From NCBI GenBank assembly GCA_020341815.1, contig CP070837.1, positions 1,108,575 through 1,172,574 on the forward strand: a DNA stretch of 64,000 nucleotides. The letters are read 5' to 3'. A model generated the notes under the pieces. It ran no database searches, was not told where the DNA came from, and saw only the letters and a program-made list of their open reading frames with translations. A program made the translations under genes and the position numbers. Below are positions 8,430 to 48,059 of this stretch, one piece after another. The DNA comes from Candidatus Omnitrophota bacterium (GTDB taxonomy: Bacteria; Omnitrophota; Gorgyraeia; JAFGHF01). The number at the start of each line of letters is the position of its first letter. Positions within the stretch are counted from its first letter, which is position 1.

Positions 8430-8454
8430 TTAAAGCACAATTTGAGACCCTTTT

Positions 8455-8480
8455 AAGCCCGTCCCGTGAGGCGGGAAAAG
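8455..8480 (+). promoter_or_regulatory. PyrR-binding loop (UCCNGNGAGG-type) in pyr leader
   Basis: agcccGUCCCGUGAGGCGGGa matches the conserved PyrR RNA-binding-loop consensus, and cccg/cggg can form the flanking stem. It lies immediately 5' of the leader-ORF RBS. Confidence 0.6.
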
Positions 8481-8490
8481 GAGTGAAAAA

Positions 8491-10040
<1,550 letters not shown>

Positions 10041-25267: not shown

Positions 25268-25345
25268 GGGGCGGTTAGTTCAGTTGGCTAGAACGCTTGA
25301 TTTACATTCAAGAGGTCAGAGGTTCAAGTCCTCTACCGCCCACCA
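25268..25345 (+). tRNA. tRNA-Val (anticodon TAC)
   Basis: Acceptor gggcggt/accgccc, anticodon loop tt-TAC-at and T-loop ggttcaagtcc. CCA is encoded. Confidence 0.8.
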
Positions 25346-25355
25346 GAAGATATTT

Positions 25356-25433
25356 GGGGACGTCGTCTAGTTTGGATAAGGCCCCGGACTGTCGATCCGG
25401 TGATCGCGGGTTCGAGCCCCGTCGTCCCCGCCA
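25356..25433 (+). tRNA. tRNA-Asp (anticodon GTC)
   Basis: Acceptor ggggacg/cgtcccc, anticodon loop ct-GTC-ga and T-loop gggttcgagcccc. CCA is encoded. Confidence 0.8.
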
Positions 25434-25480
25434 TTATATTTTGTCGTTAAAATTTGAAAAGTCAATAAATAGATAGTTTT

Positions 25481-25556
25481 GCCGGGATAGCTCAGGTGGT
25501 AGAGCGCGGCCCTGAAAAGGCCGGCGTCCCCAGTTCAACTCTGGGTCCCGGCACCA
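25481..25556 (+). tRNA. tRNA-Phe (anticodon GAA)
   Basis: gccgggatagctcag start, anticodon loop ct-GAA-aa and 3' tcccggcacca. Confidence 0.85.
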
Positions 25557-25577
25557 TTTTTATCACCTGCCTAATGT

Positions 25578-25649
25578 GCTGGCGTAGCTCAGTGGTAGAG
25601 CAGCGGTTTCGTAAACCGCAGGTCGTCAGTTCAATCCTGACCGCCAGCT
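25578..25649 (+). tRNA. tRNA-Thr (anticodon CGT), CCA not encoded
   Basis: gctggcgtagctcagtggtagagc start, anticodon loop tt-CGT-aa, T-loop gttcaatcc and acceptor cgccagc. Confidence 0.8.
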
Positions 25650-27381: not shown

Positions 27382-28221
27382 ATGGGCTTGGGCAGGAAGT
27401 GGACGATTATAATAGCGGTAATTCTGGGACTTTCGGCCGTAATTCTGACTAATATCTATTTAGAGCAGAGCAGGAGAGAAATAGTGGTCGAGGAGGCCCG
27501 GATTTTAATTGCAGCCAGAGATATAACCAAAGGTTCGGTGATTGATTATGATATGCTGGCTTTTAAGACTATGCCGCTTACATTTATCCAGCCGGGGGCC
27601 TTCGCCTCTAAAGAAGGTGCCGTAGGCAAGACTGCAGCGATTACGATTATAGCAGGAGAACAGATTTTAAGTAGCAAATTGGCCGCTCCGGAGACAGGAC
27701 TGACTCTGGCCGGCAAGACCCCTCCCGGCAAAAGGGCGATAACTATCGGGTTGGATGCGGCTTCGGCGGTAGGGGGGATGGTTGGGCCCGGAGACCATGT
27801 CGATGTCCTGGCTATCTTTACCGCTCCTTCGATAACCGTAACTTTATTTCAGGATATCCTGGTTCTGGCGGTGGGACAGAGAATAGTGGCTGAGGCCGAG
27901 GAAAGAAGGCCCCGCAGAGAAGAGGTTTTGGGAACAGGCAGGGAGACCGTTACTTTGGCTCTCACTCCCCAGGAAGTGCAGATTCTTATTCTGGCAACGG
28001 AACAGGGAAAGATTCGCCTGACTCTCAGGCCGCGCATGGAAACGGGTGAAGTCTTGCCACAAGTGGATTTGACTAATTTACCGCCGGTGATTGAGCTGAA
28101 TACATTATTGCAGTTATATATCAGGAGGCCTCCTGCCGAAATGGTGGAGCCTAAGGCGCAAGTTGAAATCATTCGTGGCCTAAAAAAGGAAGTTACGCCC
28201 GTTCCGGAAAACAATAAATGA
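27382..28221 (+). CDS. cpaB: Flp pilus assembly protein CpaB/RcpC
   Basis: N-terminal TM, then a SAF-like domain (ITKGSVIDYDML...). Sits in a tad cluster. Confidence 0.75.
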   Translation: MGLGRKWTIIIAVILGLSAVILTNIYLEQSRREIVVEEARILIAARDITKGSVIDYDMLAFKTMPLTFIQPGAFASKEGAVGKTAAITIIAGEQILSSKLAAPETGLTLAGKTPPGKRAITIGLDAASAVGGMVGPGDHVDVLAIFTAPSITVTLFQDILVLAVGQRIVAEAEERRPRREEVLGTGRETVTLALTPQEVQILILATEQGKIRLTLRPRMETGEVLPQVDLTNLPPVIELNTLLQLYIRRPPAEMVEPKAQVEIIRGLKKEVTPVPENNK

Positions 28222-29786
28222 AACTTAAAACTTTAATTCTGACAATTTGTCTTGCCCTGTTGACCCAGAGATTAGCTTTCACCTGGACAGAAGAGGTGCA
28301 GCTTGTTACCAACGAATTAAAGATAATTCCGGTTCAGGAGCTAAAGAGGGTAGCCATAGGAGACCCTGCCGTAGCCGATATGACCATATTGAGCGCTCGG
28401 GAAGTAATGCTGATGGCCAAGAGTTCAGGTACCACCAGTCTGATTATCTGGGATGCATCAGGCCAGCGTTCCTTTAACATTACTGTCCTGGGTAAGGATC
28501 TGGAAAAAATTGCCCAGAAAATCAGGGAATTACTTGTTTCCTCGGATATTCAGGGGGTGACGGTTAAGGCGCAAGAGGACGGCGTTTATGTGACGGGAGA
28601 GGTGTTAACCCAGTACGAACTGGATAAAGTTAAGAGCGTTTTAGCTCCTTTTGCTACTAATACGACAAATTTAGTCAGACTCAAAGAGCGCCAGCCTCTG
28701 GTGGAAATAGATGTAAATGTCTTAGAGGTTGCCTGCGATGACGTAAAGAGGCTGGGTTTTGACTGGTCAAATCTTTTACCAATCACATACACCGAGCCCT
28801 CAGGGACGCGCACTGCCGGCAGCTCTTATGACCCCAAAAGCCATATTACCGGCAAGGCTCCCAAGCTCTGGAGGACATTCAAGTGGGACCGCAGCACCAT
28901 TGACGCCAGACTGAATTTTTTAATAGAGGAGGGCAAGGCGCGCACTTTGTCTAATCCCAAATTAGTAACCTTAAGCGGTAAGGAGGCATCCTTTTTGGTG
29001 GGCGGAGAAACGCCTTATGTTACGGTGGAGACCGAAGGCAGGACAAAAGTGGAATGGAAAGAGTACGGGATAAATTTAAAGATACTTCCGGAAGTCAATA
29101 CTAAAAATGAGATAAGAATCGTGATGAATGCCGAAGTTTCTGACTTGGGCTCAAGTGTTTTAGAACAGGGATATTCTATCCCTTCCGTCACGACGAGAAA
29201 AGCCCAGACCGAGCTTTTTCTCAACGAAGAAGATACGATTTTTCTCGCCGGCCTGATTAGGAATAGAGATAGCGAAAATATAGATAGGCTTCCCTGGCTA
29301 AGCAAGGTTCCTATTTTAGGCGAGATGTTCAAATATAATAACCTTACTGATACGCGCACAGAGCTGGTAATCTCTTTGACACCGAGAATTATCGGCGAGA
29401 AAGCCGATTTCGAATACATCGCCAGCGAGATGCTCAAGCAGGAAGCAATTTTGGCGGCGCGCTCAGCCTATACCGAGGAAGTTTCTCCGCTCGATTCTTA
29501 CAATCAAATGATAGAGGATATTATTACCAATGCGGTTGTTTATCCCGAGGCGGCTCGCGAGGTGGGGCTTGAAGGTATGGTCAAGATTGAATTGCGCCTT
29601 TTGTCCGACGGCCGGCTGAAAGAGGCTAAAATCAGGGAATCCTCCGGATTCAGCACCTTAGACAGGGCTGCGCTTGCCGCAGTGCAGGCTGTTGATGCCT
29701 ATCCTTCATTTCCATCGCAGATTGCAGAAGAGGAGCTTCTGCTTTCCGTGCCGGTAGTATTCGAAAGTTATACGAAAGGTGAATAA
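28218..29786 (+). CDS. cpaC: Flp pilus secretin CpaC/RcpA with C-terminal TonB_C-like domain
   Basis: Signal peptide, N-terminal BON-like domains and a secretin core (...LVGGETPYV...VPILGEMF...). The last ~90 aa, YPEAAREVGLEGMVKIELRLLSDGRLKEAKIRESSGFSTLDRAALAAVQ, match the TonB C-terminal domain pattern. Confidence 0.7.
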   Translation: MKLKTLILTICLALLTQRLAFTWTEEVQLVTNELKIIPVQELKRVAIGDPAVADMTILSAREVMLMAKSSGTTSLIIWDASGQRSFNITVLGKDLEKIAQKIRELLVSSDIQGVTVKAQEDGVYVTGEVLTQYELDKVKSVLAPFATNTTNLVRLKERQPLVEIDVNVLEVACDDVKRLGFDWSNLLPITYTEPSGTRTAGSSYDPKSHITGKAPKLWRTFKWDRSTIDARLNFLIEEGKARTLSNPKLVTLSGKEASFLVGGETPYVTVETEGRTKVEWKEYGINLKILPEVNTKNEIRIVMNAEVSDLGSSVLEQGYSIPSVTTRKAQTELFLNEEDTIFLAGLIRNRDSENIDRLPWLSKVPILGEMFKYNNLTDTRTELVISLTPRIIGEKADFEYIASEMLKQEAILAARSAYTEEVSPLDSYNQMIEDIITNAVVYPEAAREVGLEGMVKIELRLLSDGRLKEAKIRESSGFSTLDRAALAAVQAVDAYPSFPSQIAEEELLLSVPVVFESYTKGE

Positions 29787-29789
29787 AAT

Positions 29790-31928
29790 ATGTGTCGGAC
29801 AATTTCTATATTTGGTACCAAGGGCGGGGTAGGCAAGACCGTTATTGCCGCTAACCTTGCTGTGAGCCTGACCCAGATGGGGAAAAAAGTAGCCCTGCTC
29901 GATCTGGACTTACAGTTTAGCGGTGACATAGCCAAGATATTGGATGTCAAGCCGAAAGAGACCATTTTTTCTCTTATCCCTCACCTGCCGAAATTAGATA
30001 AGGCCGGCTCCCTCAAGAGACATATGACCAGCCATGCTTCCGGTTTGGATATCCTCTCGGCTGTAAGTAGCCCTAAGGAAATTCCTCAGATTATTCCTTC
30101 CCGCCTGGAGCCAATTTTGAATTTGCTTAAGGCGGAATATGAATTTATCATTATTGACGCCGGCAGTTTCTTTACCGATAGCTTAATTTATTTATTTGAT
30201 AACTCTAATCTTATCCTTGAAGTAAGCACTCCGGATGTGCTTTCTGTGTATCAGACCGAATGGAGTGTGGATACGCTGGAGAACCTGCATTTTCCTTTAA
30301 GTATGGTTAAGTTAATCCTTAATCGCGCCGAAAGCCGGGGAGGGGTACGCTGGGAAGACGTAAAATCTGCCCTGAGGTGTGAGGTAATTGCTCATATTCC
30401 CAGTGATGGGCGCACGGTAGGCCTGGCAGTTAACCGGGGCGTGCCTTTTGTGACAGATACCCCGCGCGCAAAAATCAGCGAGGCCGTAAGAAAGCTGGCC
30501 CAGACCTTAATCAGTCAGGACAGGCTTTATATTGAGAAATTAAAACGTCCGCGTATAGCTGAAGAGCCCGCTCGCGTGGGCCAATTCTGGGAACATTACG
30601 GCCTGGCAGCTCCCTTAACTGTTCTTGGCGCAGAGGAAAAGGACGAAATTATTCTGCTTAAGCAGGCGGTGCATAGCCGATTGATCGATGAACTGGATTT
30701 GAAAACGCTGGATGTAGTAGCCTTAAGCCGCAATCCAGAGAAGGCAAAGCAACTCAGAGAAAGGACAGAGAAGGCTATTGCCAATATTTTGGTGGAAAAA
30801 GGCTCCGGTCTAATCTCTTCTTATGAAGTGCGTAAGGAATTAGTGAAAGAGATTGCCGATGAGGTCCTGGGTCTTGGGCCTCTGGAAGATTTATTAAGGG
30901 ATCCGGAAATAACGGAAGTAATGGTAAATAATAAAGACCAGGTTTATGTAGAGCGCCACGGGAAAATAGAGCTTACCAATAAAAAATTCATCAATAATGA
31001 ACAGGTGCGGGCAGTGATTGAGCGTATTGTTGCGCCTCTGGGCCGAAGAGTTGATGAAAGCGTGCCTATGGTGGATGCGCGTCTTCCCGATGGCTCGCGC
31101 GTAAATGCGATTATCCCTCCCCTGTCTATTAAAGGCCCGACATTGACTATCCGCAAGTTTGCCCGCGAGCGCTATACGATGGAAGACCTGGTTAAGTTCG
31201 GCACCTTAAGTCCGGCGATGGTGGAATTTCTCAAGACCTGTATCCTGGTGCGCCGAAATATGATTGTCTCCGGAGGCACGGGTAGCGGCAAGACCACACT
31301 GCTTAATGCCCTCTCTCGTTTTATTCCCGAACAGGAAAGGATTATCACTATTGAAGATGCCGCAGAACTTAAACTGCATCAGAGACATTGGATATCTCTG
31401 GAGGCGCGCATGCCCAATATTGAAGGAAAGGGCGCTATTCCCATCAGAGAACTTTTTCGTAATTCCTTGCGTATGCGTCCCGACCGTATTATTATCGGTG
31501 AATGCCGCGGCAATGAAACTCCGGATATGCTGCAAGCAATGAATACAGGACATGACGGTTCCTTAACTACTATTCATGCCAATTCTACTCATCATGTTCT
31601 GACACGTCTGGATGCAATGGTTTTAATGAGCGGAATAGAGCTTCCTGTGCGCACTATTCGTGAACAGATAGCCGGAGCAATTAATCTTATCATTCACACT
31701 GCCCGTTTAAGTGACGGTTCAAGGAAAGTAATGTGTATTACCCAAGTCTTAGGCCTTAAAGAGCCGATGGGAATTGAAATGAAAGATATTTTCATCTTTA
31801 AGCAAACCGGCACCGGAAAAGACGGAAAAGTCTTGGGCACATTTAAGCCCACGGGTTTTGTGCCTACTTTCCTGGAAGACATACATCTCAAAGGCATTAA
31901 GCTTTCTCCTTCCATATTCAAATCCTAA
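29790..31928 (+). CDS. Fused CpaE/TadZ-like ParA/MinD ATPase :: CpaF/TadA secretion ATPase
   Basis: N-terminal deviant Walker A GTKGGVGKT (ParA/MinD type). C-terminal half carries SGGTGSGKTT with Asp box and His box, typical of CpaF/TadA. A single 712-aa ORF. Confidence 0.75.
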   Translation: MCRTISIFGTKGGVGKTVIAANLAVSLTQMGKKVALLDLDLQFSGDIAKILDVKPKETIFSLIPHLPKLDKAGSLKRHMTSHASGLDILSAVSSPKEIPQIIPSRLEPILNLLKAEYEFIIIDAGSFFTDSLIYLFDNSNLILEVSTPDVLSVYQTEWSVDTLENLHFPLSMVKLILNRAESRGGVRWEDVKSALRCEVIAHIPSDGRTVGLAVNRGVPFVTDTPRAKISEAVRKLAQTLISQDRLYIEKLKRPRIAEEPARVGQFWEHYGLAAPLTVLGAEEKDEIILLKQAVHSRLIDELDLKTLDVVALSRNPEKAKQLRERTEKAIANILVEKGSGLISSYEVRKELVKEIADEVLGLGPLEDLLRDPEITEVMVNNKDQVYVERHGKIELTNKKFINNEQVRAVIERIVAPLGRRVDESVPMVDARLPDGSRVNAIIPPLSIKGPTLTIRKFARERYTMEDLVKFGTLSPAMVEFLKTCILVRRNMIVSGGTGSGKTTLLNALSRFIPEQERIITIEDAAELKLHQRHWISLEARMPNIEGKGAIPIRELFRNSLRMRPDRIIIGECRGNETPDMLQAMNTGHDGSLTTIHANSTHHVLTRLDAMVLMSGIELPVRTIREQIAGAINLIIHTARLSDGSRKVMCITQVLGLKEPMGIEMKDIFIFKQTGTGKDGKVLGTFKPTGFVPTFLEDIHLKGIKLSPSIFKS

Positions 31929-32657: not shown

Positions 32658-34244
32658 ATGAAACTAAGCCCGGAAATAAAGGCTTTTATTGATGATCAAA
32701 TCAGAACTAAGAAACCATCCCTTACTTACAACAAATTAAGGCAAAAGGTGGCCCAGAGATACAATGTGCGTATCTCCAAGGCAACAATCAGTAAAAGGGC
32801 CAGTGCCTTAAATGTCCGGTTTCGGCCGGGTCGCAGGCGTGCAGGTACCGTTGAGAAGCGGCCGGCGCACAGCACGGCCTTAGACTGCGCCGGGGGCTTT
32901 TTCCTGAAGGGCGCAGAGCTGGAAATAGGCCTATTATCCGCCCTAAATAACTCACTTAAGGTGCGCAGCGATTCCGGGCAGGCTCGACGGGTACTGATGC
33001 TTGCCCGGCAGCTTAACGCCATATTGCTATATGCGCCTGTATTTGGCCTTAAAACCGTGGGTGAAATTGCCTCTTATCAAGGGCAGGGCCTGCTTTACCT
33101 TGCCGAGCAAAAGGATATCCCCGCTGAGAAGGAAATCGAGCAATATCTGCAATTCCTGATTAAACAAAAGTTGTTACTGCCTGCCATTAAGGAAGTTACA
33201 AGGATTTCTCAGGAGGCCCTGTTTGTGTATGCAGAGCTTGCCGGCCGAAAGTTCTATCTGGATGCCCAGTTGCGCTCAGTCTGGCCAAAGCCGAAAATCC
33301 CCCAATATTTTACTGCAACTCTAAATAAGACAAGTAGTTACGTCAAAGATATCTTCCAAAACCCTTCCCCGCAGCAACCGCTGATCTTACAGGCTTGTCC
33401 GGGTTATGCCTTTTTGCCCGGAGAGATGTTCGACCTAATCCAGTGCTTTGAAGAGGCCGGCGAGAAGCCCATTTTACGCCTTGTTATTGGGGGTAAGGCC
33501 GGAGAAGTCCTCAACTGTTGGGAGAGCCTTAAGCCAGGGCAAAAATGCTACTTTTTGGCTCCGTTAAGCCCCTGGCAGTATGCAAAGCTCCAGGGCAGCA
33601 AAATCATCAAAGATTTTAAGCCGTATCTCATTGGGCCGCAGAAAGAGCCGATGTCTGTGGCAGAGGCAGAAGTAAACCTCTTTAATCCACAACTCAATGA
33701 AAACGTTAGAGTTAGGGCAGCAATGGTAAGGAGGCAGGGGGAGCGCCTGGTGTTGGTTACCAATATTTCTCGCCGCGAAGAGCGCTATATCCGCAGGATA
33801 GTTGAAGCCTATTTCTGCCGCTGGCCAAACAGGAAAATGCCCAGCTATTACGACCTGTTAGAGCAGGGGCATGAAGAAGTGCTGGCCCGTTCAGACAAAC
33901 TCTATCGCACAACTCCTTTATTGACAATTGGTTACGACAAAGATGTCCTGAACGGATTTAGGTATCTCCTTGCGCAGCTTAATCGTTATGCCCAGGAACA
34001 CTTTTTCCCGTCGGAGTACAGGAAAGAGGACTTAGACTCTATGTGCAAGAAGTTTTACCGCCAGGATGGATACCTGAAAATGAAACAAGATTGCTGCGAG
34101 GTAACCCTGCGCTCTTTCGCGCAAGATGTCCTTCAGGAGGCCGTTCAGATTGCCCGCCAAAAAATCAATCAAAACGGCATAAAATTCCCTGCCTCGCGGC
34201 AAGGCGGGCCTACCCAGACCCAACCCCAGCTACGTATAAAATAA
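32658..34244 (+). CDS. Hypothetical 528-aa protein with N-terminal HTH; possible regulator or degenerate transposase-like protein
   Basis: N-terminal ...LTYNKLRQKVAQRYNVRISKATISKRA is HTH-like. The C-terminal Y..RW fragment is reminiscent of DDE transposases, but it is incomplete. Confidence 0.3.
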   Translation: MKLSPEIKAFIDDQIRTKKPSLTYNKLRQKVAQRYNVRISKATISKRASALNVRFRPGRRRAGTVEKRPAHSTALDCAGGFFLKGAELEIGLLSALNNSLKVRSDSGQARRVLMLARQLNAILLYAPVFGLKTVGEIASYQGQGLLYLAEQKDIPAEKEIEQYLQFLIKQKLLLPAIKEVTRISQEALFVYAELAGRKFYLDAQLRSVWPKPKIPQYFTATLNKTSSYVKDIFQNPSPQQPLILQACPGYAFLPGEMFDLIQCFEEAGEKPILRLVIGGKAGEVLNCWESLKPGQKCYFLAPLSPWQYAKLQGSKIIKDFKPYLIGPQKEPMSVAEAEVNLFNPQLNENVRVRAAMVRRQGERLVLVTNISRREERYIRRIVEAYFCRWPNRKMPSYYDLLEQGHEEVLARSDKLYRTTPLLTIGYDKDVLNGFRYLLAQLNRYAQEHFFPSEYRKEDLDSMCKKFYRQDGYLKMKQDCCEVTLRSFAQDVLQEAVQIARQKINQNGIKFPASRQGGPTQTQPQLRIK

Positions 34245-34272
34245 GCATGCCTGCCTCGCCCTCAGGCGGGCC

Positions 34273-34311
34273 TGTTAAGAGTTACAAAAGGTGTGTTAAG
34301 CGTTACAAAAG
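34273..34311 (+). repeat. Tandem 21-bp direct repeat (tgttaagAgttacaaaag / tgttaagCgttacaaaag)
   Basis: Seen directly. Candidate protein-binding site upstream of the flp promoter. Confidence 0.6.
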
Positions 34312-34325
34312 TCAGTTTTTCTCCC

Positions 34326-34354
34326 TTGCCAAATCCCCCTTGATATGCTATACT
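34326..34354 (+). promoter_or_regulatory. sigma70-like promoter TTGCCA-17bp-TATACT for flp leader/array
   Basis: TTGCCA at 34326-34331 and TATACT at 34349-34354. Confidence 0.5.
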
Positions 34355-34360
34355 TAGGGT

Positions 34361-34500
34361 GCAGGTAAACAAGGTTACTCGAAAACGCAACCTCGCACTA
34401 ATTTTTCAAAAAATTAGTGCTGGGGCGCAAAGCCACGGGCCCCGAGATTTTGGGGCAGCCGGGCTGCCGAAAGTAACGGCGGTCCGGCTTTTTATTTGAG
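34361..34500 (+). ncRNA. Candidate structured leader / riboswitch-like element (multiple hairpins, GGGGCGCAAAGCC motif, ends in T-tract)
   Basis: Hairpins gcactaattttt/aaaattagtgc (34395-34420), gccccgagattttggggc and ggcagccgggctgcc, then ccggcTTTTTATTT (34485-34497). The GGGGCGCAAAGCCaCGGGcC stretch resembles the c-di-GMP-I (GEMM) GGGACGCAAAGCC core. Confidence 0.3.
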
Positions 34501-34601
34501 GAATTATTAAGACTTTTAAAAAGTAATTATAAAGAGGCGGCAAAATGACAACAAATGGTGCAACAAAAAACCTGCATAGCAAAAAATTGAGGGTAAGATC
34601 A

Positions 34602-34637
34602 GCAGACCTTTCTAATAAGGGGTCTGCTTTTTTATTT
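34602..34637 (+). terminator. Terminator/attenuator hairpin (gcagacc...ggtctgc + TTTTTTATTTT) immediately upstream of flp1
   Basis: 7-bp stem at 34602-34608 pairs with 34621-34627, followed by a T-run at 34628-34637. Confidence 0.55.
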
Positions 34638-34667
34638 TCGTTTTCCATAAATCAGGGAGGCGGTAAA

Positions 34668-34847
34668 ATGAGGCGGCTACTTAAGAGAGGTCAGAGTGTA
34701 TTGGAATACGTTCTGGTCTTGAGCGCGATTGTCGCGGCTATCCTGGCAGTAGCATCTACAATAAAAGGTAATGTAAAAAGTTCTGTAGAGCATGCAGCCG
34801 GGGAAATGTACGATGTTATAGACACAAGATTTCTACCGCAAAAATAA
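34668..34847 (+). CDS. flp: Flp-family type IVb pilin 1
   Basis: MRRLLKRGQSVLEYVLVLSAIVAAILAV is a class III signal peptide with the G/xxxxEY motif and a hydrophobic helix. RBS GGGAGG. Confidence 0.75.
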   Translation: MRRLLKRGQSVLEYVLVLSAIVAAILAVASTIKGNVKSSVEHAAGEMYDVIDTRFLPQK

Positions 34848-34881
34848 TTGCAATAAAGGGAAAGGATGCAGGAGGAATAAA

Positions 34882-35055
34882 ATGAGGCGGCTAAATAAAA
34901 GAGGACAGAGCATATTGGAATACGTGATAATTTTGACTGCGATTATTGCAGGCATTATTTTGGCAACGCCGGAAGTGAAAACTAAGGTTACAGATCTTCT
35001 GACAAGAGCAGGCAACAGAATGCAAACTGAAGTAACAACAAAATTGAATTTTTAA
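34882..35055 (+). CDS. flp: Flp-family pilin 2 (57 aa; below ORF-track cutoff)
   Basis: MRRLNKRGQSILEYVIILTAIIAGIILA... found by manual translation. RBS AGGAGG. Confidence 0.7.
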   Translation: MRRLNKRGQSILEYVIILTAIIAGIILATPEVKTKVTDLLTRAGNRMQTEVTTKLNF

Positions 35056-35074
35056 TGATTGCAGGAGGAATAAA

Positions 35075-35422
35075 ATGAGGCGGCTAAATAAAAGAGGACA
35101 GAGTACCGGAGAATATGCAATAGTTATCGGCTTGATTGTTGCCGCAGCAATTGCCATGCAGACCTATGTAAAAAGAGGAATGCAGGGAAAGATAAGGAAA
35201 GCCGTAGATAATATCAGTGAAGCCACCCGAGGCACAACCTTGCAATATGAGCCTTACTATTCCCACTCGGACTTTGAAACCAACACTCAGGAATATACAA
35301 TGACAGAAGCAACCACAGAGGGTGGAGGCTATGAGAAGCACATGGGTGAGGCGGGAGGATCAACAAAAACATCTCATCGAACCGGAACTCGAGGCATCCG
35401 GGCTGCGTCTGAAGCAGATTAA
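35075..35422 (+). CDS. flp: Flp-family pilin 3 with extended C-terminal tail
   Basis: MRRLNKRGQSTGEYAIVIGLIVAAAIAMQTYVKRG... followed by a T/G/E-rich tail. Confidence 0.7.
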   Translation: MRRLNKRGQSTGEYAIVIGLIVAAAIAMQTYVKRGMQGKIRKAVDNISEATRGTTLQYEPYYSHSDFETNTQEYTMTEATTEGGGYEKHMGEAGGSTKTSHRTGTRGIRAASEAD

Positions 35423-35454
35423 TTGAAACACACAAAGACATAACGAGGTGAAAA

Positions 35455-35805
35455 ATGAGGCGGCTAAATAAAAGAGGACAAAATACTATAGAATATGCAG
35501 TGCTTGTCGCTGTGGTGGTATCGGCTTTATTGGCAATCCAGACCTATTTAAACAGAGGGGTCAAGGGCAGGCTGAGAAGCTCCGTTGATAGCATAGGGCA
35601 GCAGTATTCTGCCGGGAATATGACCAGCTCCTCTACAACTACCGTTGCACCGCAAAAAAATGAGGAGGAATTTGGTACTGATACTTTAGGAAGAGGCTAT
35701 ACTAAGTCAAAAAGTACAGGCGGCACGACTACTGTACAGACTACAGGTGAGGGTGAGAAGACTACTTTGGGCTTGAGCGAAGAGACGTTATGGGAGGGAC
35801 AATAA
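35455..35805 (+). CDS. flp: Flp-family pilin 4 with extended Thr/Gly-rich tail
   Basis: MRRLNKRGQNTIEYAVLVAVVVSALLAIQTYLNRG... Confidence 0.7.
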   Translation: MRRLNKRGQNTIEYAVLVAVVVSALLAIQTYLNRGVKGRLRSSVDSIGQQYSAGNMTSSSTTTVAPQKNEEEFGTDTLGRGYTKSKSTGGTTTVQTTGEGEKTTLGLSEETLWEGQ

Positions 35806-36284
35806 TGAGGCGGCTAAATAAAAAAGGACAGAGCACGGCGGAATATGCGATAGTTATCGGTCTGATTATCGGCGCAGTAATTGGTATGCAGACCTATGTA
35901 AAAAGAGGGGTGCAGGCCAGAGTCAAAGACGCTGTTGATGGTTTTGCTACTCGCGCAGACCATAAGGCTAATTTCGGCGCCGGGGATATTAGTTATAACT
36001 TTACTGACTATAAAAATGCCCAGATTGGAGAAACTGCGCAGGGAGACGTAAAATACTTAAAATCAAGAGACACCACCAGCACCATTGGAACCGGCACTAC
36101 TGCAACCGAGCAGATGGAAAAAGGCGGAAAGGTAACAAGGACATCAACGACAATCCAGACTCGGGAAGTGGATGAAACCTATGATTACCAGAAAGTCCTA
36201 AGAGGACAAGCAGCAGGAGGAGGACAAGCAGGAGCAGGAGCAGGACAAACAGGAGAGCAAACAGGAGGAGGAGGAGGAGGATAA
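35805..36284 (+). CDS. flp: Flp-family pilin 5 with long tail ending in Gly/Gln/Ala low-complexity
   Basis: MRRLNKKGQSTAEYAIVIGLIIGAVIGMQTYVKRG... and a C-terminal GGGQAGAGAGQTGEQTGGGGGG. The ATG overlaps the flp4 stop (taATG). Confidence 0.7.
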   Translation: MRRLNKKGQSTAEYAIVIGLIIGAVIGMQTYVKRGVQARVKDAVDGFATRADHKANFGAGDISYNFTDYKNAQIGETAQGDVKYLKSRDTTSTIGTGTTATEQMEKGGKVTRTSTTIQTREVDETYDYQKVLRGQAAGGGQAGAGAGQTGEQTGGGGGG

Positions 36285-36289
36285 TAAAG

Positions 36290-36652
36290 ATGCGCTGGTT
36301 ATCTAGTAAAAAAGGACAAAATACGTTGGAATACGCTCTTCTTATAGCTACGGTCGTTGGTGCCGTTGTGGGTATGCAGATTTATGCTAAAAGAGGGGTT
36401 GAGGGAAAGCTGAAAAGCGCCACGGATGATATCGGCGCGCAGTTTGACCCCTTGAATACAGCGTACAGCTGGACCAATACACAAGAAAGCACAACGAAAA
36501 CGGTAACCAATGCCAGTGGCGTTAGCAATACCTATATGGGCGTTCCGGGTGGTGGCGTGCAAGAAACAACTACAAGAAGCGGCTATGAGAGCGTTAGCCC
36601 GTGGCGAGTACAGCCAGAGCCACAGACAGAGACAAAGCCACCGCAGAAATAA
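36290..36652 (+). CDS. flp: Flp-family pilin 6
   Basis: MRWLSSKKGQNTLEYALLIATVVGAVVGMQIYAKRG... Confidence 0.65.
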   Translation: MRWLSSKKGQNTLEYALLIATVVGAVVGMQIYAKRGVEGKLKSATDDIGAQFDPLNTAYSWTNTQESTTKTVTNASGVSNTYMGVPGGGVQETTTRSGYESVSPWRVQPEPQTETKPPQK

Positions 36653-36692
36653 ACTATCTATATTGTTTTGAATAGATGAGGTATTTATTAAA

Positions 36693-36848
36693 ATGTTTAC
36701 CGACGGACAGAGCGTAGTAGAATATATGGTTTTATTTGCGATAGTTGCTGCCTTTACTTTGCTGAGCGTATGCAGTTTATTTCCTCCCCTGAGGCAAAGT
36801 TGCCAGATCGCTTTTCAAGGCGCAATGGAGGAGATCTTAGAATGCGAA
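36693..36848 (+). CDS. Small Flp-like protein 7 (51 aa, divergent N-terminus MFTDGQSVVEY...)
   Basis: Found by manual translation. It has the GQSVVEY motif and a hydrophobic helix, and is Cys-rich. Confidence 0.4.
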
Positions 36849-36997
36849 TAAATCACCGCGCGCAAACCACATTGGAATATGCGATTTTAATTGCCGTTGT
36901 CGCAGCCGCATGTGCGGCAATGACTACTTATGTGCAGCGGGCGGTGCGGGCCAATCTGAAAGTGATTGAGGAGCAGATAAATGCAGAACCCGATTAA
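36842..36997 (+). CDS. flp: Flp-family pilin 8 (51 aa)
   Basis: MRINHRAQTTLEYAILIAVVAAACAAMTTYVQRAV... The ORF track's longer 36770 start is probably a spurious extension. Confidence 0.6.
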   Translation: MRINHRAQTTLEYAILIAVVAAACAAMTTYVQRAVRANLKVIEEQINAEPD

Positions 36998-37046
36998 TTA
37001 TTATAATATATTATTAAGGCTCTATATAGTCAGGATAATAGGCAGG

Positions 37047-37496
37047 ATGAATATAAGAAATAAGGGACAGGTTCTTCTAAGAACCGGCGGGCAGGTATTG
37101 CTGGAATACGGCCTTATTTTAGTTTTAATAGCAACTACTATAATTGGCATACAATTATATGTTAGAAGAGGCTTGCAGGCCAGGCTCAAAGACGCAGTTG
37201 ATGGGACAATCGAAAGGATTTATATAACCGCCAAATCCAAGCCTAAGGTAGAATTGCCTACCGGTGAGATACCCCCTATTGTTATTTATTCCCCAGCAGA
37301 TCTTCAATACGAACCTTATTATGAGCAGTCAGATATTACCACCACAAGCAACTCCAACATTACCAATTCTTATTCGCCCGGTGGAGCAAGCAGTAAAGCG
37401 ATAGAGAGTGAGAAAACTATGCGCACAGGCAGCCGTCTTGAGTTGCCTTATTCAGATAAGGCAGGCCCGCCTACCAGCGGCGAGGCAGGAGAATAA
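37047..37496 (+). CDS. flp: Flp-family pilin 9 with extended tail (start uncertain, 36981 possible)
   Basis: MNIRNKGQVLLRTGGQVLLEYGLILVLIATTIIGIQLYVRRGLQARLKDAVDG... Confidence 0.55.
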   Translation: MNIRNKGQVLLRTGGQVLLEYGLILVLIATTIIGIQLYVRRGLQARLKDAVDGTIERIYITAKSKPKVELPTGEIPPIVIYSPADLQYEPYYEQSDITTTSNSNITNSYSPGGASSKAIESEKTMRTGSRLELPYSDKAGPPTSGEAGE

Positions 37497-37497
37497 A

Positions 37498-38013
37498 ATG
37501 GGTAAATTAATTTCATCCAAGAGAGCTCAGGCTGTTTTAGAATATGCAGTTGTTTTGGGTATTGTTGCCCTGGCCCTGGGGATGATGCAGGTATATCTGA
37601 TGCGGGGCATTCAGGCCGGGGTTAAGATTGCCGCGGACGAAATAGGCCTGCAGGAGGATTCGGTAGAGTTGTCTGTGGAATTGAACTCGGCAAAGGAATT
37701 GGATTCGGCAAAGGAATTCGATGTCGCTGAAGTCAACAAGCAGAGATCCGTAGTGCGCAGCGAAAGTGCCAGCACGCACACTATTACGCATGGCGCCGGT
37801 GGCGGCCAGACAGCAGCAGAAACTTATAGTAATGAAATTATCAAAGTGGATGAAACTAATCCCAGTTGCAGCAAATCCTGGTATGGTTGGAGGAAGAAGC
37901 ACGAAAAGCCGGATGAGGCCGAAACTTCTTTGACGGTATTGGGTCCGGGAGGATCCCCGGATACGCCGTTTTCCGGAGAGGCCTACTCTCCCGATAAAGA
38001 ATACGGGGAATAA
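37498..38013 (+). CDS. flp: Flp-family pilin 10 with extended tail and internal short repeat
   Basis: MGKLISSKRAQAVLEYAVVLGIVALALGMMQVYLMRG... with an ELNSAKELDSAKEFD repeat at 37679-37722. Confidence 0.6.
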   Translation: MGKLISSKRAQAVLEYAVVLGIVALALGMMQVYLMRGIQAGVKIAADEIGLQEDSVELSVELNSAKELDSAKEFDVAEVNKQRSVVRSESASTHTITHGAGGGQTAAETYSNEIIKVDETNPSCSKSWYGWRKKHEKPDEAETSLTVLGPGGSPDTPFSGEAYSPDKEYGE

Positions 38014-38014
38014 A

Positions 38015-38371
38015 ATGTTAACAGGACTGATGAAGAAAAAAGCTCAAACCTTACTTGAATATGCGCTGGTAATAGCCTGCGTTGCGGCAGCTTTAATGGC
38101 AATGCAGTTTTATGTCAAGCGCGCTGTGCAGGGAAGGCTGCGCACTGCCGCCGACCAGATTGGCGAGCAATATGAGCCGGGTGACGTAACAGGCGGCTTT
38201 ACCGTAACAGTAGACAGGGATATTACTACAAATGTAGAGCCGGAGCAGGAATTAATCATAGAAGGTGAAGATGGATATGCGACGCTTAGGACGGATACAT
38301 TTACCAAAGATGAGTTTGAGCGCACAGGCACAGAAACCCTGGGCGCATTCGGCTCATCGCTTTGGGAATAA
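38015..38371 (+). CDS. flp: Flp-family pilin 11
   Basis: MLTGLMKKKAQTLLEYALVIACVAAALMAMQFYVKRAVQG... Confidence 0.65.
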   Translation: MLTGLMKKKAQTLLEYALVIACVAAALMAMQFYVKRAVQGRLRTAADQIGEQYEPGDVTGGFTVTVDRDITTNVEPEQELIIEGEDGYATLRTDTFTKDEFERTGTETLGAFGSSLWE

Positions 38372-43615: not shown

Positions 43616-46600
43616 ATGAAAGCGTCTTGCGCTAAGACAATCTGGTTTAAGCTTGCAAGCATCCTGACGATAGGACTTTTTCTATTGCAGGGCAGCGCTT
43701 TCGGCGAATTCGACCCTATCGAAAAAAATAGGTATAATAAGCAGAGCGTCGCGCCGGAGTATGACTGGCGGCAGGATGCTATCGGATTTGCAACTACGGT
43801 TGCAATGCCTTTTGTGCCCTCGGCTGCCGGGGGAATCGGAGGCGCCTTTGGCCTGGGCACAGGATGGACAACTGCTATTGGCGTGGGATTGGGCGCAGGT
43901 GTAGGCGCAACCCCGGGTTTGGTTGCCAATAATGATACTGCTACAGGCATCGGTGCTGTATGTGGCGGCCTTACCGGGGGGCTTGGCACTTATAATCAGG
44001 TTTCTAATTTTAATACCGGAATAAATGAAGTTGGGCGAGTGAGCGATGAACTAAAGACCGTTAATGATATGGTGGAAAATGCTAAGCTGCTTAAAGCGGC
44101 AGGCTATCTTAACGAAGCCAACTTTAATATCTCGCAAGCTAGCAGCATAGTCTCCGGCGGCACAGAAACAGCGATGTCAATAGGAGAATTAACCAGGATA
44201 AGTGAAACAATGGGGACGATGATAAATAGCGCCGATAGCCTGGGCCAATTAGGTTATTATAATGAAGCGGCATTCAATCTTTCCCAGGCAGCTAAGATAG
44301 TTCCCGATGTATGTTCACTAACCACGGCGAGTAATTTAATTGCTATGAGCAATGCGATTAATCCCCTTCCTCAGGTTATTGAGAAAATGTCCATAAGCTT
44401 TGCCACCCAGGAGGCCAGCTCGATATTGGTAAAAGCAGCTGTGTCTAAATGGAATTGGAACCCCAGGAATGCCCAGGCATTGGGGATGATTGGCGGCTCT
44501 ATGACCGGCTGGACTATGGGTTCACTCACTACCGGCGGGCAGAATATGATGTATGGGATGTATAAAGACAGCTGGCCCGGCTTAGCTGACTGGGCTACCT
44601 CAGACTCTACCTGGAAAAATGTAGGCGCAGGAGCAGTTACCGGTTTAGGGTTGGGAGGCTTGCAGACCCTTGCTACTATGGAATTATACGATGCCCTGGA
44701 GTCTCATAACAATAAAATGCCCGATACAACTAAGATGCAGGTGGCTTCTCTTGGCGGCCAGGCTTTAGGAAGTCTTGGCTGGGGCGGCCTGGTAGGCGGA
44801 TTTGGCAGCTTAGGGAAAGACCATATGCCTACTTACGATGAATATATAGCCGGCGGCGGCAAAGTTAACAAGGGCTCTCTTAGCGGTCAAGGGGCCGGTC
44901 CGCTTTCAAAGAAAGGGTTTGAGAATTGGGTTGCAACTGCGCAGCCTGTAGCTGTAGCGGATAAAGGCAACTGGCTTACGGGCATAAAAGATGGAGCCGG
45001 CAATTTTGGCAGTGGTATGTGGCAGGGCATTAAAACAACCGCCAATGAGCCGTTCTGGAAGGGTATCGGACAGAGGACGCTTTCCATCGGTATCGAATGG
45101 GCAGCCTTACACAATGAAATGGATCCGGAGGATGCTTCCAATCTTGCCTCAAGCACTTCAATGCTTTTAGCTAACACAGTGCCTATGTATCCGCATCGGC
45201 CCGATCCCCAACAGGCAGAACGTCTTAAAGAAGGCGCCAGAGCCCTGGAGGCGCAAGCGGATAATTTAAGAAAAGGTCATAGTGAGGTTAAGGAACATTT
45301 TGGAGAGCTCCTGGTGGGCGATCCTCTTTTAGCTATGGAGATAGACAATACATTTGAAAATAAAATAAAGGCCTTTGAGAATCGGGCAGAAAAAACAAAG
45401 GCGCAGGCAGAGAGGGTAGAAGGCTGGCATGTGAGTACTTTACGCGAGCCCACACCTATTACTAAATATAGAATGTTAAATGCATTCCTGGAACCGGTTA
45501 CTTCCGGCCTGCTTACCTTAGCTGCGGATAACTTGCGTAAGGGCAAGGTAGAAGCGTTTTATGATGCCCCGGGCGCAAAAGAGAGAAATGACGCCCGGAT
45601 TGATTTGCTGGTGCACGATTTAACCGCAATGAATGTAGCCAGCCTCACTCATTCCGGAATAGTTGCCCTGTTTAATCAGAAAGGCTGGGGAGAAGGCTTT
45701 GATGAGTTTGGTCAAATCTATCTGGCCAAACAGTGCGATTTTTCCGGTGATATGCTTTCTTTTGGCAGTCAGGCCTTTGGGGCAAAGACTGGCGGAAGAA
45801 GGGATGAAACAGCAGGTGGTTATAGTATATATGGCGCTGCCCAGAGAAATAGCCAGATGTGGGATTTTGCCGGTTTGAATAATTTTGCTGCCCAGGCAGA
45901 AGAAGTTGCCGATGCCGGCGGCAGGTGGCAGCGGCAGATGACAGAAGGCTTGTTTGCCAGTCCTTTTCCCGCTGTTTCAAGGAGTCTTAGCAGTCCTTCA
46001 GGTGGGTTAGCTTATAGTCACACTATCAGAAATGCGGAAGGTTTGGTATATACAGGGATTAAGAATAGCAAACTTATAGCGCCTTATGAGCTTGAGCATA
46101 TTAGTCCTCAGTATGCTTTTAAGTTAGAGCACGGGAATCTTAAACAGCAAGCAATGCTTACTGAAATAAATCGTTGGATTAAGGAATCATCCTATCCTGT
46201 AGCTTTTGGCAAAGAAGGTGTTAATTTTCAATATTGGTCTATTGGGGAAATTGCTCCAAATAGTGAAAAGTTAATGCTAGAGAATGCATTTACAAAAGTT
46301 GAATACAAAGATGAAGACCAGATAATGCTTAAGGCATTAAAGAAGTTTGATGTCAATAAACCTTTTAAGCTTGCCTTTATCGGTCCTGATAGATATAAAC
46401 AGACACCGCTTATTGAAAAGGAAAAGATTGTGCCGCCACAACCTAAAAAGATTGTGCCGCCATCCCCGCCAGTTGAAGAAGTTAAACCATCTGCGAAGAA
46501 AGAAGAAGTGTTGCCGCCAAAACCTCCGGCTCCTGTTGTTGCGCCTTCTCGCGAGGGTTATCCTATAGAAGGAGGGTGGTTTCGTCCGAATGATCCTCCT

Positions 46601-48058
46601 AAGTATCCGGCAAACGGGGTAGGCTGGCATGAAGAGCTTAAGGAGGAGGACATCACATCACCTCCGTCAAGAAAGGGCATAGTATTCGATGGGAATGATG
46701 ACCCTTCGCTATATATAGGTATGGAAGATTATCCAACTTCTCCTAAAGATGATGCTTATAACATGGGAGCGGGAACCGTTTTTCCAAAGGGAGATATCGA
46801 GAATCCCGGTCAAATAGTTACTTGTCCAGAGCCAGATATTACAGAGTTGCCCGCTGTGCAAAAGAGCAATGAGATAAATCGCTATATGCCTCCTAAACAT
46901 AATAAAAAGTATTTTGAGAATATAAATTCCGAAGAGAGTAAGCCTATACAGCAGACACCAGTTGAGATAGAGACTCGTTCACTTCCCACAATGGGCACTT
47001 CAGAAATACCAACTTCTTTGGAAATACCAAGAGAGCCAGCTAGAGAAAGTGTACTCTTTCGGTTGGGAAGTATTTCTCCAACTACATCTTCAGTAGTTGC
47101 TTCTCCCGCAAAAGAAAAGTCTATTGAAACCAAGAGCATAGGTAATTCCACGTTATTGCTTAATAAAGATGGCTTGCAGGAATTTGCCCTGAAGCACAAT
47201 ATTCCTATTGCAGAATTAAATGAAGTCGCTATAAATGCAGCAGGCACAACACCCGAAGAAATGTTATTATCTATGGAAACATACGCCATTGTAAAAAATG
47301 CTGTTGAGAAAAAATTTCTTAGCGAAGGAGTGAGGGATCTGACTGCAGAACATATCTTGCCGGCTCTTAAATCAGGACAAATACTCATTATGAAGGATGA
47401 TGTACAAAATAGCATAGTAAAGGCAAGGTATTTTCCGCAATCGGATCGCGTTGAATTTGTAATAGGAATGACAGATTTGGAGAATTTAGACAATCGCGAG
47501 AATGTTATCCATGAGCTTGTGGCACATGGTTTACAGGATGCCCTGACGCTGTTCCAAAGAAGAGATGATGTGGAAAGAAACGCAGACTTTATAGCAGCAG
47601 AATATAGATTAAGAACTAAAGGCCTATTGCGGGAAGATGTGCAGGGGGATGTTAAAATTTCTATTGCTAATAAGGATGAATTTGCAGGGCTGCGCTATGA
47701 TGAGAAAGCGGTTGTTTACCAATATGCCTTAAGAAATCTAAGACAGGGAAGAAACGATCTTAACGATTTTCCTGGCACAGAAAAAGGTAGTTTTGCTCTC
47801 TTGTCAGCAAAGGAAGCCGAAGAAATTAATCTGCATGAATATTTTCAAGAAGACCTGAAGAATTACATAAGCTTATATGATAGTGAATTAGCGATGGCCC
47901 TTATGTTTAGAAAAACAAAACGCGACTTATCGGAAGTTATTGAGGTAGACGGATTCAACAGAGAAGGCAAAAACTTTGGGATTGAGCCTTCTCCATTACC
48001 GGCAATAGCACCAACTGCTTTACCAAACTCGTATATAATGCCGGGACTAAGTGATTAA
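43616..48058 (+). CDS. Large secreted protein (1480 aa): signal peptide, Gly-rich segment, Pro-rich PPxP linker, HEXXH motif
   Basis: Signal peptide MKAS...LLQGSAFG. Gly-rich run ...AAGGIGGAFGLGTGWTTAIGVGLGAGVGA.... KIVPPQPKKIVPPSPPVEEVKP...LPPKPPAPVVAPS at 46420-46560 and IHELVAHG at 47507-47530. Sits immediately after tadC. Confidence 0.6.
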   Translation: MKASCAKTIWFKLASILTIGLFLLQGSAFGEFDPIEKNRYNKQSVAPEYDWRQDAIGFATTVAMPFVPSAAGGIGGAFGLGTGWTTAIGVGLGAGVGATPGLVANNDTATGIGAVCGGLTGGLGTYNQVSNFNTGINEVGRVSDELKTVNDMVENAKLLKAAGYLNEANFNISQASSIVSGGTETAMSIGELTRISETMGTMINSADSLGQLGYYNEAAFNLSQAAKIVPDVCSLTTASNLIAMSNAINPLPQVIEKMSISFATQEASSILVKAAVSKWNWNPRNAQALGMIGGSMTGWTMGSLTTGGQNMMYGMYKDSWPGLADWATSDSTWKNVGAGAVTGLGLGGLQTLATMELYDALESHNNKMPDTTKMQVASLGGQALGSLGWGGLVGGFGSLGKDHMPTYDEYIAGGGKVNKGSLSGQGAGPLSKKGFENWVATAQPVAVADKGNWLTGIKDGAGNFGSGMWQGIKTTANEPFWKGIGQRTLSIGIEWAALHNEMDPEDASNLASSTSMLLANTVPMYPHRPDPQQAERLKEGARALEAQADNLRKGHSEVKEHFGELLVGDPLLAMEIDNTFENKIKAFENRAEKTKAQAERVEGWHVSTLREPTPITKYRMLNAFLEPVTSGLLTLAADNLRKGKVEAFYDAPGAKERNDARIDLLVHDLTAMNVASLTHSGIVALFNQKGWGEGFDEFGQIYLAKQCDFSGDMLSFGSQAFGAKTGGRRDETAGGYSIYGAAQRNSQMWDFAGLNNFAAQAEEVADAGGRWQRQMTEGLFASPFPAVSRSLSSPSGGLAYSHTIRNAEGLVYTGIKNSKLIAPYELEHISPQYAFKLEHGNLKQQAMLTEINRWIKESSYPVAFGKEGVNFQYWSIGEIAPNSEKLMLENAFTKVEYKDEDQIMLKALKKFDVNKPFKLAFIGPDRYKQTPLIEKEKIVPPQPKKIVPPSPPVEEVKPSAKKEEVLPPKPPAPVVAPSREGYPIEGGWFRPNDPPKYPANGVGWHEELKEEDITSPPSRKGIVFDGNDDPSLYIGMEDYPTSPKDDAYNMGAGTVFPKGDIENPGQIVTCPEPDITELPAVQKSNEINRYMPPKHNKKYFENINSEESKPIQQTPVEIETRSLPTMGTSEIPTSLEIPREPARESVLFRLGSISPTTSSVVASPAKEKSIETKSIGNSTLLLNKDGLQEFALKHNIPIAELNEVAINAAGTTPEEMLLSMETYAIVKNAVEKKFLSEGVRDLTAEHILPALKSGQILIMKDDVQNSIVKARYFPQSDRVEFVIGMTDLENLDNRENVIHELVAHGLQDALTLFQRRDDVERNADFIAAEYRLRTKGLLREDVQGDVKISIANKDEFAGLRYDEKAVVYQYALRNLRQGRNDLNDFPGTEKGSFALLSAKEAEEINLHEYFQEDLKNYISLYDSELAMALMFRKTKRDLSEVIEVDGFNREGKNFGIEPSPLPAIAPTALPNSYIMPGLSD

Positions 48059-48059
48059 A

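Follow-up and report, generated by a model that had tools for sequence, protein, structure and literature searches.

The DNA analysed here, called the window throughout, is a 64-kb stretch of a Candidatus Omnitrophota genome that carries a Tad locus, the genes of which were named by Pfam search of the window open reading frames (ORFs). Genes for an RcpC/CpaB protein, a secretin with a TonB_C tail, a 712-aa fusion of ParA-like and T2SSE ATPases, a DUF192 protein and a 528-aa helix-turn-helix (HTH) protein (p528) are followed by a leader region; 3′ of the leader lie about 11 Flp-type pilin genes (34668..38371), then a TadG-like protein and two TadB/C proteins. By covariance model the leader is a class-I cyclic di-GMP (c-di-GMP), or GEMM-I, riboswitch aptamer, and it is followed by two intrinsic terminators, the second of which sits within an ORF that runs into the first pilin gene, flp1. 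We think it probable that these parts together constitute a c-di-GMP-I ON riboswitch with a second, ORF-embedded terminator, regulating the Flp/Tad pilin operon. A c-di-GMP riboswitch or attenuator upstream of the pilin array had been proposed in an initial annotation of the same DNA, and the proposal is supported by the covariance model, by compensatory changes in the helices and by an overlap between terminator and aptamer. The components of the aptamer and its expression platform are as follows.

34375..34476 (+), c-di-GMP-I aptamer, matching RF01051, with all listed pairs canonical
34375..34381 with 34468..34476 (+), helix P1, in the window 3 bp, a 2-nt bulge and 4 bp
34382..34386 (+), junction J1/2, with C34386 at the G20 position
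34387/34428 and 34388/34427 (+), equivalents of the G21-C46 and C22-G45 pairs
34392..34423 (+), P2 hairpin
34429 (+), A34429, the A47 equivalent
34431..34465 (+), P3, with the upper P3 hairpin at 34439..34456
34467 (+), C34467, the C92 equivalent
34457..34497 (+), terminator 1 (the expression platform), a 13-bp stem (10 GC) of 34457..34469 with 34477..34489, then a U-tract to 34497
34498..34544 (+), AT-rich spacer with a conserved TTAAGaCTTTTAAAAAG string, then a Shine-Dalgarno (SD)-like GAGGCGG at 34534..34540

Scanning the window with Rfam models at gathering thresholds reveals a match to RF01051 (c-di-GMP-I) at 34376..34471 (+), which spans model positions 1-87. Its score is 47.8 bits, the gathering score being 35, and E is 2.9e-6 over the full 64 kb and 2.7e-8 over the local region. 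The string GGGGCGCAAAGCCACGGGCC at 34422..34441, which had first been singled out as GEMM-like, is the J2/3-P3 core of this match. RF01051 is a better model for the window than RF03167 (c-di-GMP-I-GGC), against which the relatives score 33.7-51.2 bits, below the gathering score of 59. A permissive Rfam scan of 34200..34800 gave sub-threshold noise only, and hence no second RNA family between the two terminators. When 34361..34668 is folded as RNA, the energy is −108.1 kcal/mol (z = −6.0 relative to dinucleotide shuffles), which is structure beyond chance, and the predicted hairpins include P2, upper P3, terminator 1 and terminator 2, in keeping with the four or more that had been anticipated. 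Truncated at 34476, the transcript adopts the aptamer secondary structure on its own.

The roles of the pocket nucleotides are known from the Vibrio cholerae Vc2 aptamer, in which C92 forms a Watson-Crick pair with one ligand guanine while G20 reads the Hoogsteen edge of the other (PMC6140456), A47 stacks between the ligand bases (PMC6140456, PMC3764141), and an inter-helix C44-G83 contact holds P2 and P3 parallel (PMC3764141). The equivalents of A47-A49, C92, the G21-C46 pair, C44 and G83 are all unchanged in the window. P2 in the window is a long stem with a loop that does not conform to the GNRA tetraloop pattern, and among the relatives only L006 and L021 have GAAA loops on P2 (L-numbers denote related loci). 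This tetraloop is reportedly optional in the c-di-GMP-I family, as in types 1 and 2 of Weinberg 2007.

Related loci were identified through homologues of the ATPase fusion and p528, all of which come from Candidatus Omnitrophota metagenome-assembled genomes or metagenomes; a metagenome search for further homologues returned four loci, two of them of use, and an exact-match look-up of flp1 for an independent contig with the window's own leader gave no match. The order of ATPase fusion, DUF192, p528, leader and pilin array is the same in every related locus that extends far enough, and an aptamer follows p528 in all of them. Twelve related Omnitrophota leaders pass the RF01051 threshold (35.1-55 bits), and with the window this amounts to 13 of 14 distinct full-length leaders; the remaining one, L030, falls below the threshold and has a very large P3 insertion with the same core sequence. 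Covariation was assessed in a MAFFT alignment of the 13 leaders, each taken from immediately 3′ of the −10 box as far as the U-tract. In the aptamer helices 97.3% of cells are paired, and double changes are present at six pairs, comprising all four P2 pairs tested and two upper-P3 pairs. None of 500 shuffles reached the observed score, and sliding the structure by 1-3 columns leaves merely 28-45% paired. The columns corresponding to C34467 (C92) and A34429 (A47) are invariant. The terminator 1 stem is likewise conserved, with 95.5% of cells paired and compensatory changes at two pairs (C-G to U-A and G-C to A-U), and when RNAalifold is given no structure the consensus it returns consists of the G21C22/G45C46 pairs, P2, upper P3 and terminator 1. 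The hairpins are thus maintained in related loci through compensatory changes, and the two tests put forward in the initial annotation, a covariance-model hit and hairpin conservation in related genomes, both come out in favour of a riboswitch; a chance match or a set of generic hairpins was considered and rejected by the Rfam score, the synteny and the covariation.

Terminator 1 and the aptamer make use of the same nucleotides. The 3′ strand of lower P3, C34467 and the initial nucleotides on the 3′ side of P1 together supply the 5′ arm of the terminator (34457..34469), and the terminator stem is followed by TTTTTATTT; aptamer and terminator are mutually exclusive. The overlap is present in all 13 leaders, every one of which folds at full length into terminator 1, with lower P3 kept in none, and in the window the fold energies are −36.2 kcal/mol for the aptamer and −46.1 kcal/mol for the terminator. 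Because terminator 1 re-uses the P3 3′ strand, the ligand-pairing C and the top of P1, the layout as read from the sequence is that of a transcriptional ON switch. We infer that a high cyclic-dinucleotide level would turn the pilin operon on in vivo, a direction that fits the general role of c-di-GMP in attachment. T-tracts follow both terminators where they had been noted before, and the two are the strongest terminator-like sites in a 19-kb scan of the whole Tad locus. The leader had been given a length of about 140 nt; this holds for the structured part up to terminator 1 (about 137 nt), and the whole leader, counted as far as the flp1 ATG at 34668, spans about 307 nt. The AT-rich TTAAGaCTTTTAAAAAG string 3′ of terminator 1 is kept in most related leaders. 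An AT-rich string of this type (TTAAGcACTTTTATAAAG-like, 34498..34530) is seen at this position in most loci, and L019, L020, L023 and L027 have a similar string after the last terminator. A sigma-70 promoter in the AT-rich spacer or before flp1 was considered and rejected, there being no acceptable −10 hexamer.

The most conspicuous departure from the known aptamers was not recognized in the initial annotation, and it lies in J1/2. This junction reads AAAAC in the window before the G21-C22 pair, and its final base, C34386, aligns with high posterior probability to model position 11, so that the equivalent of G20 is C. The closest relative, L018, has the same C20; its p528 is 88% identical to that of the window and it comes from a different sequencing run, for which reason a sequencing error was rejected. 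G occupies this position in the other related leaders examined, 14 in number with 13 distinct sequences, and no leader has the A that typifies the cyclic GMP-AMP (cGAMP)-sensing GEMM-Ib type; the junction of L031 is AAAAG, showing position 19 to be free to vary. Between the window and L018 the leader from its start to the U-tract, outside the tip of P2, differs by only 1-2 changes in about 106 nt (approximately 99% conserved), and pairing is retained in the P2 tip despite its replacement. Between the same two genomes tadA and p528 are 88-89% identical and flp1 is 63% identical. The C20 leader is thus far more conserved than its flanking genes and would therefore appear to be functional rather than decaying. 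Since natural variation at position 20 is known (A20 in GEMM-Ib), C20 lowers confidence in the ligand and not in the fold, and since the context is shared with the G20 relatives, the ligand is most likely still c-di-GMP. Pocket mutants are said often to retain usable affinity for c-di-GMP (Smith et al. 2010).

The second terminator and the ORF that contains it occupy the region immediately before the pilin genes.

34545..34667 (+), upstream ORF, 41 codons from the ATG at 34545, in frame with flp1 and without a stop
34601..34638 (+), terminator 2, an 11-bp stem at 34601..34628 followed by TTTTTTATTTT, about 30 nt before the flp1 ATG (−14.2 kcal/mol)
34655..34847 (+), flp1, with SD GGGAGG at 34655..34660, ATG at 34668 and end at 34847, encoding 59 aa (MRRLLKRG/QSVLEY...), the first of about 11 Flp-type pilin genes

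Terminator 2 had been described as lying directly before flp1, which is only part of the picture; what had been overlooked is that it is embedded in a conserved open frame, which begins at the ATG at 34545 and continues into flp1. The two terminators are about 110 nt apart. A second terminator between terminator 1 and the first canonical pilin start is present in the window and in L018, L019, L020, L022, L023 (which has two), L027 and L006, with stabilities of −13.5 to −22 kcal/mol and T5-7 tracts. It is absent from L008/L014, L021, L025 and L030, in which a pilin gene directly follows terminator 1, and L016 is cut by Ns at the corresponding position. In all eight loci with a second terminator, an ORF with a GAGGCGG-type ribosome binding site (RBS) starts 15-37 codons upstream and either covers the hairpin or ends inside it, a layout like that of leader-peptide attenuation, in which an ORF with its own predicted RBS overlaps an intrinsic terminator. 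The ORF is stop-free and in frame with flp1 in the window, L018, L020, L022 and L027. That of L006 stops 12 nt before the flp1 ATG, that of L019 stops within the 5′ arm of the hairpin, and that of L023 passes one terminator and stops inside the next.

Frame 0 of the fused loci is free of stops, whereas the other frames have 1-8. The probability of an open frame in dinucleotide shuffles is 0.114, 0.012, 0.36 and 0.017 for the four independent loci, with a product of 8.6e-6 before the frame match is counted, and an indel that distinguishes the window from L018 here leaves the frame intact. Conservation is lacking at the peptide level, save for codons fixed by the hairpin or the SD sequence. With the frame kept open and the peptides free to change, translation as such is most simply taken to be what counts, with a ribosome behind the polymerase blocking terminator 2; we advance this tentatively, as less likely than not. 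The upstream ORF would in effect amount to an extended prepilin leader peptide. The RBS regions of this ORF (GAGGCGGCAAAATGA) and of flp1 (GAGGCGGTAAAATGA) agree in 14 of 15 positions. Identical nucleotides, ATGAGGCGGCTA (MRRL), open the first five pilin paralogues (34668..36300, +), and together with these shared starts the near-duplication of the RBS suggests either a duplication or a translational role for the GAGGCGG string.

Upstream of the aptamer are a promoter, a pair of repeats and the gene for p528.

34326..34354 (+), sigma-70-type promoter, with −35 TTGCCA at 34326..34331, a 17-nt spacer and −10 TATACT at 34349..34354 (10/12 consensus matches)
34273..34315 (+), two tandem 22-nt repeats, TGTTAAGAGTTACAAAAGGTGT and TGTTAAGCGTTACAAAAGTCAG, with copies at 34273 and 34294 (21-nt spacing)
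32658..34244 (+), p528, encoding the 528-aa HTH protein directly upstream of the leader

The TTGCCA-17-TATACT promoter was part of the initial annotation and is confirmed here. It has an extended −10 with TG (TGcTATACT), both hexamers show little or no variation across all related loci (at least 13 related leaders), and the promoter spacing predicts transcription to start near 34361. The 22-nt repeats conform to the motif TGTTAAGAGTTACAAAAGTTAG and end about 10 nt 5′ of the −35 box. Within the window these two copies are the only matches to the motif, where shuffles give an expectation of zero; one copy is at an invariant position in every related locus, and the motif is duplicated also in L018, L022, L023, L030 and L031. 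The repeats are probably a protein-binding site, either an operator or an activator site.

A candidate for the cognate protein is p528. Its 37 homologues are always located between DUF192 and the riboswitch and are confined to this Omnitrophota Tad locus. Matches to transposase-type HTH motifs are present in 16-18 of 27 family members, and with an AlphaFold model (pLDDT 86) the sole significant match in the Protein Data Bank is Tn5 transposase (E = 4.6e-4, probability 0.96), with which the TM-score is low (0.21-0.23). A transposase origin is likely. The protein is encoded by a single-copy, syntenic gene and is therefore read as a domesticated transposase, by its model looking like one of IS4/Tn5 type. 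It may bind the 22-nt repeats and regulate the pilin promoter, which we regard as a lead, and the 22-nt motif itself could be what is left of a transposon end, now serving as an operator. Upstream of p528 the motif has no inverted counterpart. An active insertion sequence whose end supplies the promoter was rejected, as an intact element, on the grounds that p528 is single-copy, that it is syntenic in at least 13 loci and that the inverted motif is lacking upstream. A GC-rich hairpin (CCTGCCTCGC...GGCGGGCCT) without a U-tract is present in two copies (+) near the end of p528, at 34186..34212 within the end of the gene and at 34248..34272 just after its stop, and is common to the window and L018 only.

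We propose that the leader would act as follows. The promoter at 34326..34354 would start a transcript whose first approximately 115 nt fold into the aptamer (34375..34476). As transcription proceeds, 34477..34489 could pair with the 3′ strand of the aptamer (lower P3, C34467 and the top of P1) to give the intrinsic terminator with its U-tract; with no ligand the terminator would be the more stable structure, and transcription would stop near 34497. With a cyclic dinucleotide bound, P1 and P3 would be held, the terminator blocked, and the polymerase would read on, such that high c-di-GMP, the usual attachment signal, would switch the pilin genes on. The read-through RNA would then meet terminator 2 (34601..34638) within the ORF running from 34545 into flp1. 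The most likely role of this element is that of a second checkpoint, at which a ribosome close behind the polymerase would keep the hairpin from forming. Pilin mRNA would accordingly be completed only with the nucleotide signal present and translation active, and the extra N-terminal residues would presumably be removed together with the prepilin leader peptide.

The change at position 20 bears most directly on the ligand. The same fold and switch could serve another one, C20 having retuned the aptamer to, for example, 3′,3′-cGAMP or made it bispecific, and the chemistry is suggestive in that the Watson-Crick face of C (an amino donor and a ring-N acceptor) resembles that of the A in the cGAMP-sensing GEMM-Ib aptamers. 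A single G20A change lets Vc2 accept cGAMP, and natural A20 variants sense it (PMC6140456, PMC7266159). Here the C is confidently aligned and the leader that bears it shows no decay between the two genomes. However, those two closely related sequences are the only ones with C20, their genetic context does not differ from that of the G20 relatives, no other pocket nucleotide has changed, and a C could pair with guanine directly or through a protonated C+·G Hoogsteen pair and so keep c-di-GMP; a change of ligand is on balance unlikely. It is also an ingredient of a more elaborate arrangement, a two-input gate on the host-attachment pili of an Omnitrophota nanobacterium, in which a C20 aptamer shifted to 3′,3′-cGAMP or to dual recognition is combined with a translation-coupled attenuator, set within a prepilin leader ORF of unusual length, and with p528, a domesticated Tn5-like transposase, on the repeats as a third layer; this combination is improbable as a whole. 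A more radical view of the same substitution is that the loss of G20, a ligand-contacting nucleotide, has left a crippled relic with no ligand response, its two terminators being constitutive attenuators that hold pilin expression down or leave its control to other factors, for example the promoter repeats and the HTH protein. The Bc1 element of the Bacillus cereus group demonstrates that a two-terminator c-di-GMP-I element can be unresponsive in vivo (PMC11218506), and no c-di-GMP enzymes are present among the window ORFs scanned. Yet a relic would be hard to reconcile with an aptamer core and terminator that differ far less between the window and L018 than do the coding genes on either side, with a P2 remodelled while its pairing is kept, or with C20 bit scores (47.8 and 52.7) as high as those of the G20 relatives, and we consider it very unlikely.

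The position of terminator 2 invites a different objection, namely that the riboswitch controls only a short RNA or small ORF ending there, and that the pilins are expressed from a separate downstream promoter. Terminator 2 is a good intrinsic terminator with no linkage to the aptamer, and in L019 and L023 the upstream ORF is a separate small one (23 or 53 aa) and the last terminator is followed by some 70 nt of conserved, AT-rich sequence in which TTGnnn-16-TATAAA-like strings occur. In the window, however, just 30 nt or so separate the terminator-2 U-tract from the flp1 ATG, and the sole promoter-like match there (TTTCCA-16-TAAAAT, 9/12) would start transcription inside flp1. The in-frame fusion of the upstream ORF to flp1 in five loci, and the loci (L008, L021, L025 and L030) in which a pilin gene follows terminator 1 with no second terminator, also speak against it, and a separate promoter is the least probable of these alternatives.

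Several points nevertheless weigh against the reading that we favour, a c-di-GMP-I ON riboswitch with a second terminator in an ORF. P1 is short, only 2-3 bp of it are kept across the relatives, and the three pairs tested are 87% paired and do not covary. Binding of c-di-GMP by the C20 copy is not assured, given that the ligand-contacting G20 is replaced by C34386, and no GGDEF, EAL or HD-GYP protein was found among those window ORFs that were scanned. Terminator 2 is uncoupled from the aptamer, the argument for translational coupling draws solely on reading-frame statistics, and the upstream ORF could be a relic of a duplicated pilin 5′ end. In Bc1, the only dual-terminator c-di-GMP-I riboswitch to have been studied, the second terminator masked the ligand response (PMC11218506), and by this precedent terminator 2 could blunt the switch rather than refine it.

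Other features of the window lie outside the leader. Two of the Tad proteins are unusual fusions: the 712-aa protein at 29790..31928 (+) joins a ParA/TadZ-like ATPase and a TadA/CpaF T2SSE ATPase in one chain, and the secretin at 28218..29786 (+) bears a C-terminal TonB_C domain. In L019, L020, L022, L027 and L031 a gene for an IS200-type Y1 transposase is inserted on the opposite strand at the same site, with the ATPase fusion on one side and DUF192 on the other; the window lacks this gene. Directly 3′ of the Tad locus is a 1480-aa ORF (43616..48058) with no Pfam or NCBIfam match, followed by an open frame of at least 5316 codons (48051..63998, +) that runs past the end of the window and is in line with reports of 'very long proteins' in Omnitrophota. 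An ordinary pyrimidine attenuator, a PyrR binding site (RF00515, 56.6 bits; gathering score 54), is located at 8445..8546 (+), 5′ of a pyrR-like phosphoribosyltransferase and pyrB/pyrC. There is a cluster of tRNA genes at 25269..25649, and a 1217-aa protein encoded at 4689..8342 (+) has a response-regulator receiver domain as its sole Pfam match.

The Omnitrophota are uncultured, mostly ultra-small organisms that are thought to be predators or parasites, with Tad pili as a leading candidate for host attachment (PMC10066038). The main paper on the phylum makes no mention of c-di-GMP or riboswitches (PMC10066038), and a conserved c-di-GMP riboswitch immediately before the pilin array suggests that attachment is turned on by a specific signal. 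The leader RNA can be tested in vitro without culturing the organism, and the C20 variant and the ORF-embedded terminator provide small, concrete test cases for the rules of ligand specificity and for the combination of riboswitch and translation-coupled control. The RNA class is already known; what is new here is the host phylum, the association with Flp/Tad pilins, the C20 variant of the pocket and the terminator within a reading frame. It had been remarked in the initial annotation that c-di-GMP riboswitch control of type IV and Tad pili is known from other bacteria, which is correct for type IV pili (C. difficile pilA1 and Geobacter pilM, below) and not for Tad/Flp pili; no open-access paper linking a GEMM riboswitch to Flp pili was found in the literature searched.

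Comparison with characterized systems places the leader among these elements. In Bc1, too, two rho-independent terminators come after a class-I aptamer, a combination described as rare by the authors of that study (PMC11218506). Its terminators are 28 bp apart and no translated ORF across the second is reported, whereas here they are separated by about 110 nt and the second lies within an ORF with its own RBS. In attenuation of the Escherichia coli pyrBI type, a leader ORF spans an intrinsic terminator and stops at the structural gene's start or close to it, and a ribosome close behind the polymerase blocks the hairpin. The Omnitrophota leader shares with pyrBI an ORF that crosses an intrinsic terminator, a likeness in possible working and not in system membership; it differs in that the ORF is fused to the pilin in five loci, and no UTP-sensitive pause or other sensing step has been identified. 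In Clostridioides difficile, according to the account that cites Bordeleau et al. 2015 (PMC13234629), a c-di-GMP-II riboswitch lies upstream of pilA1, and, as is proposed here, a c-di-GMP riboswitch turns on a pilin gene. The pilA1 switch as described there differs in having a class II aptamer, in acting on type IVa pili and in belonging to a Gram-positive host.

The closest structural comparisons are with class-I aptamers. Relative to RF01051 and V. cholerae Vc2, the window has the same three-helix aptamer above the curated threshold, with the GCAA...CGCAAAGCC core, the A47-A49 junction, C92 and both C44-G83 partners. It differs in having C20 instead of G, a long P2 without a GNRA tetraloop, an Omnitrophota host and control of Flp/Tad pilins, and its layout is that of a transcriptional ON switch, Vc2 by contrast having been described as an off switch (bioRxiv 10.1101/617340). 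The pilM cGAMP riboswitch (GEMM-Ib) of Geobacter metallireducens has A20, senses cGAMP and controls genes for type IVa pilus assembly instead of Flp pilins; its description includes neither a second terminator nor an upstream ORF. The two nonetheless share a homologous aptamer fold, a transcriptional ON layout, an association with pilus genes, and mutually exclusive aptamer and terminator structures in which the terminator sequesters the ligand-pairing C (PMC9262584).

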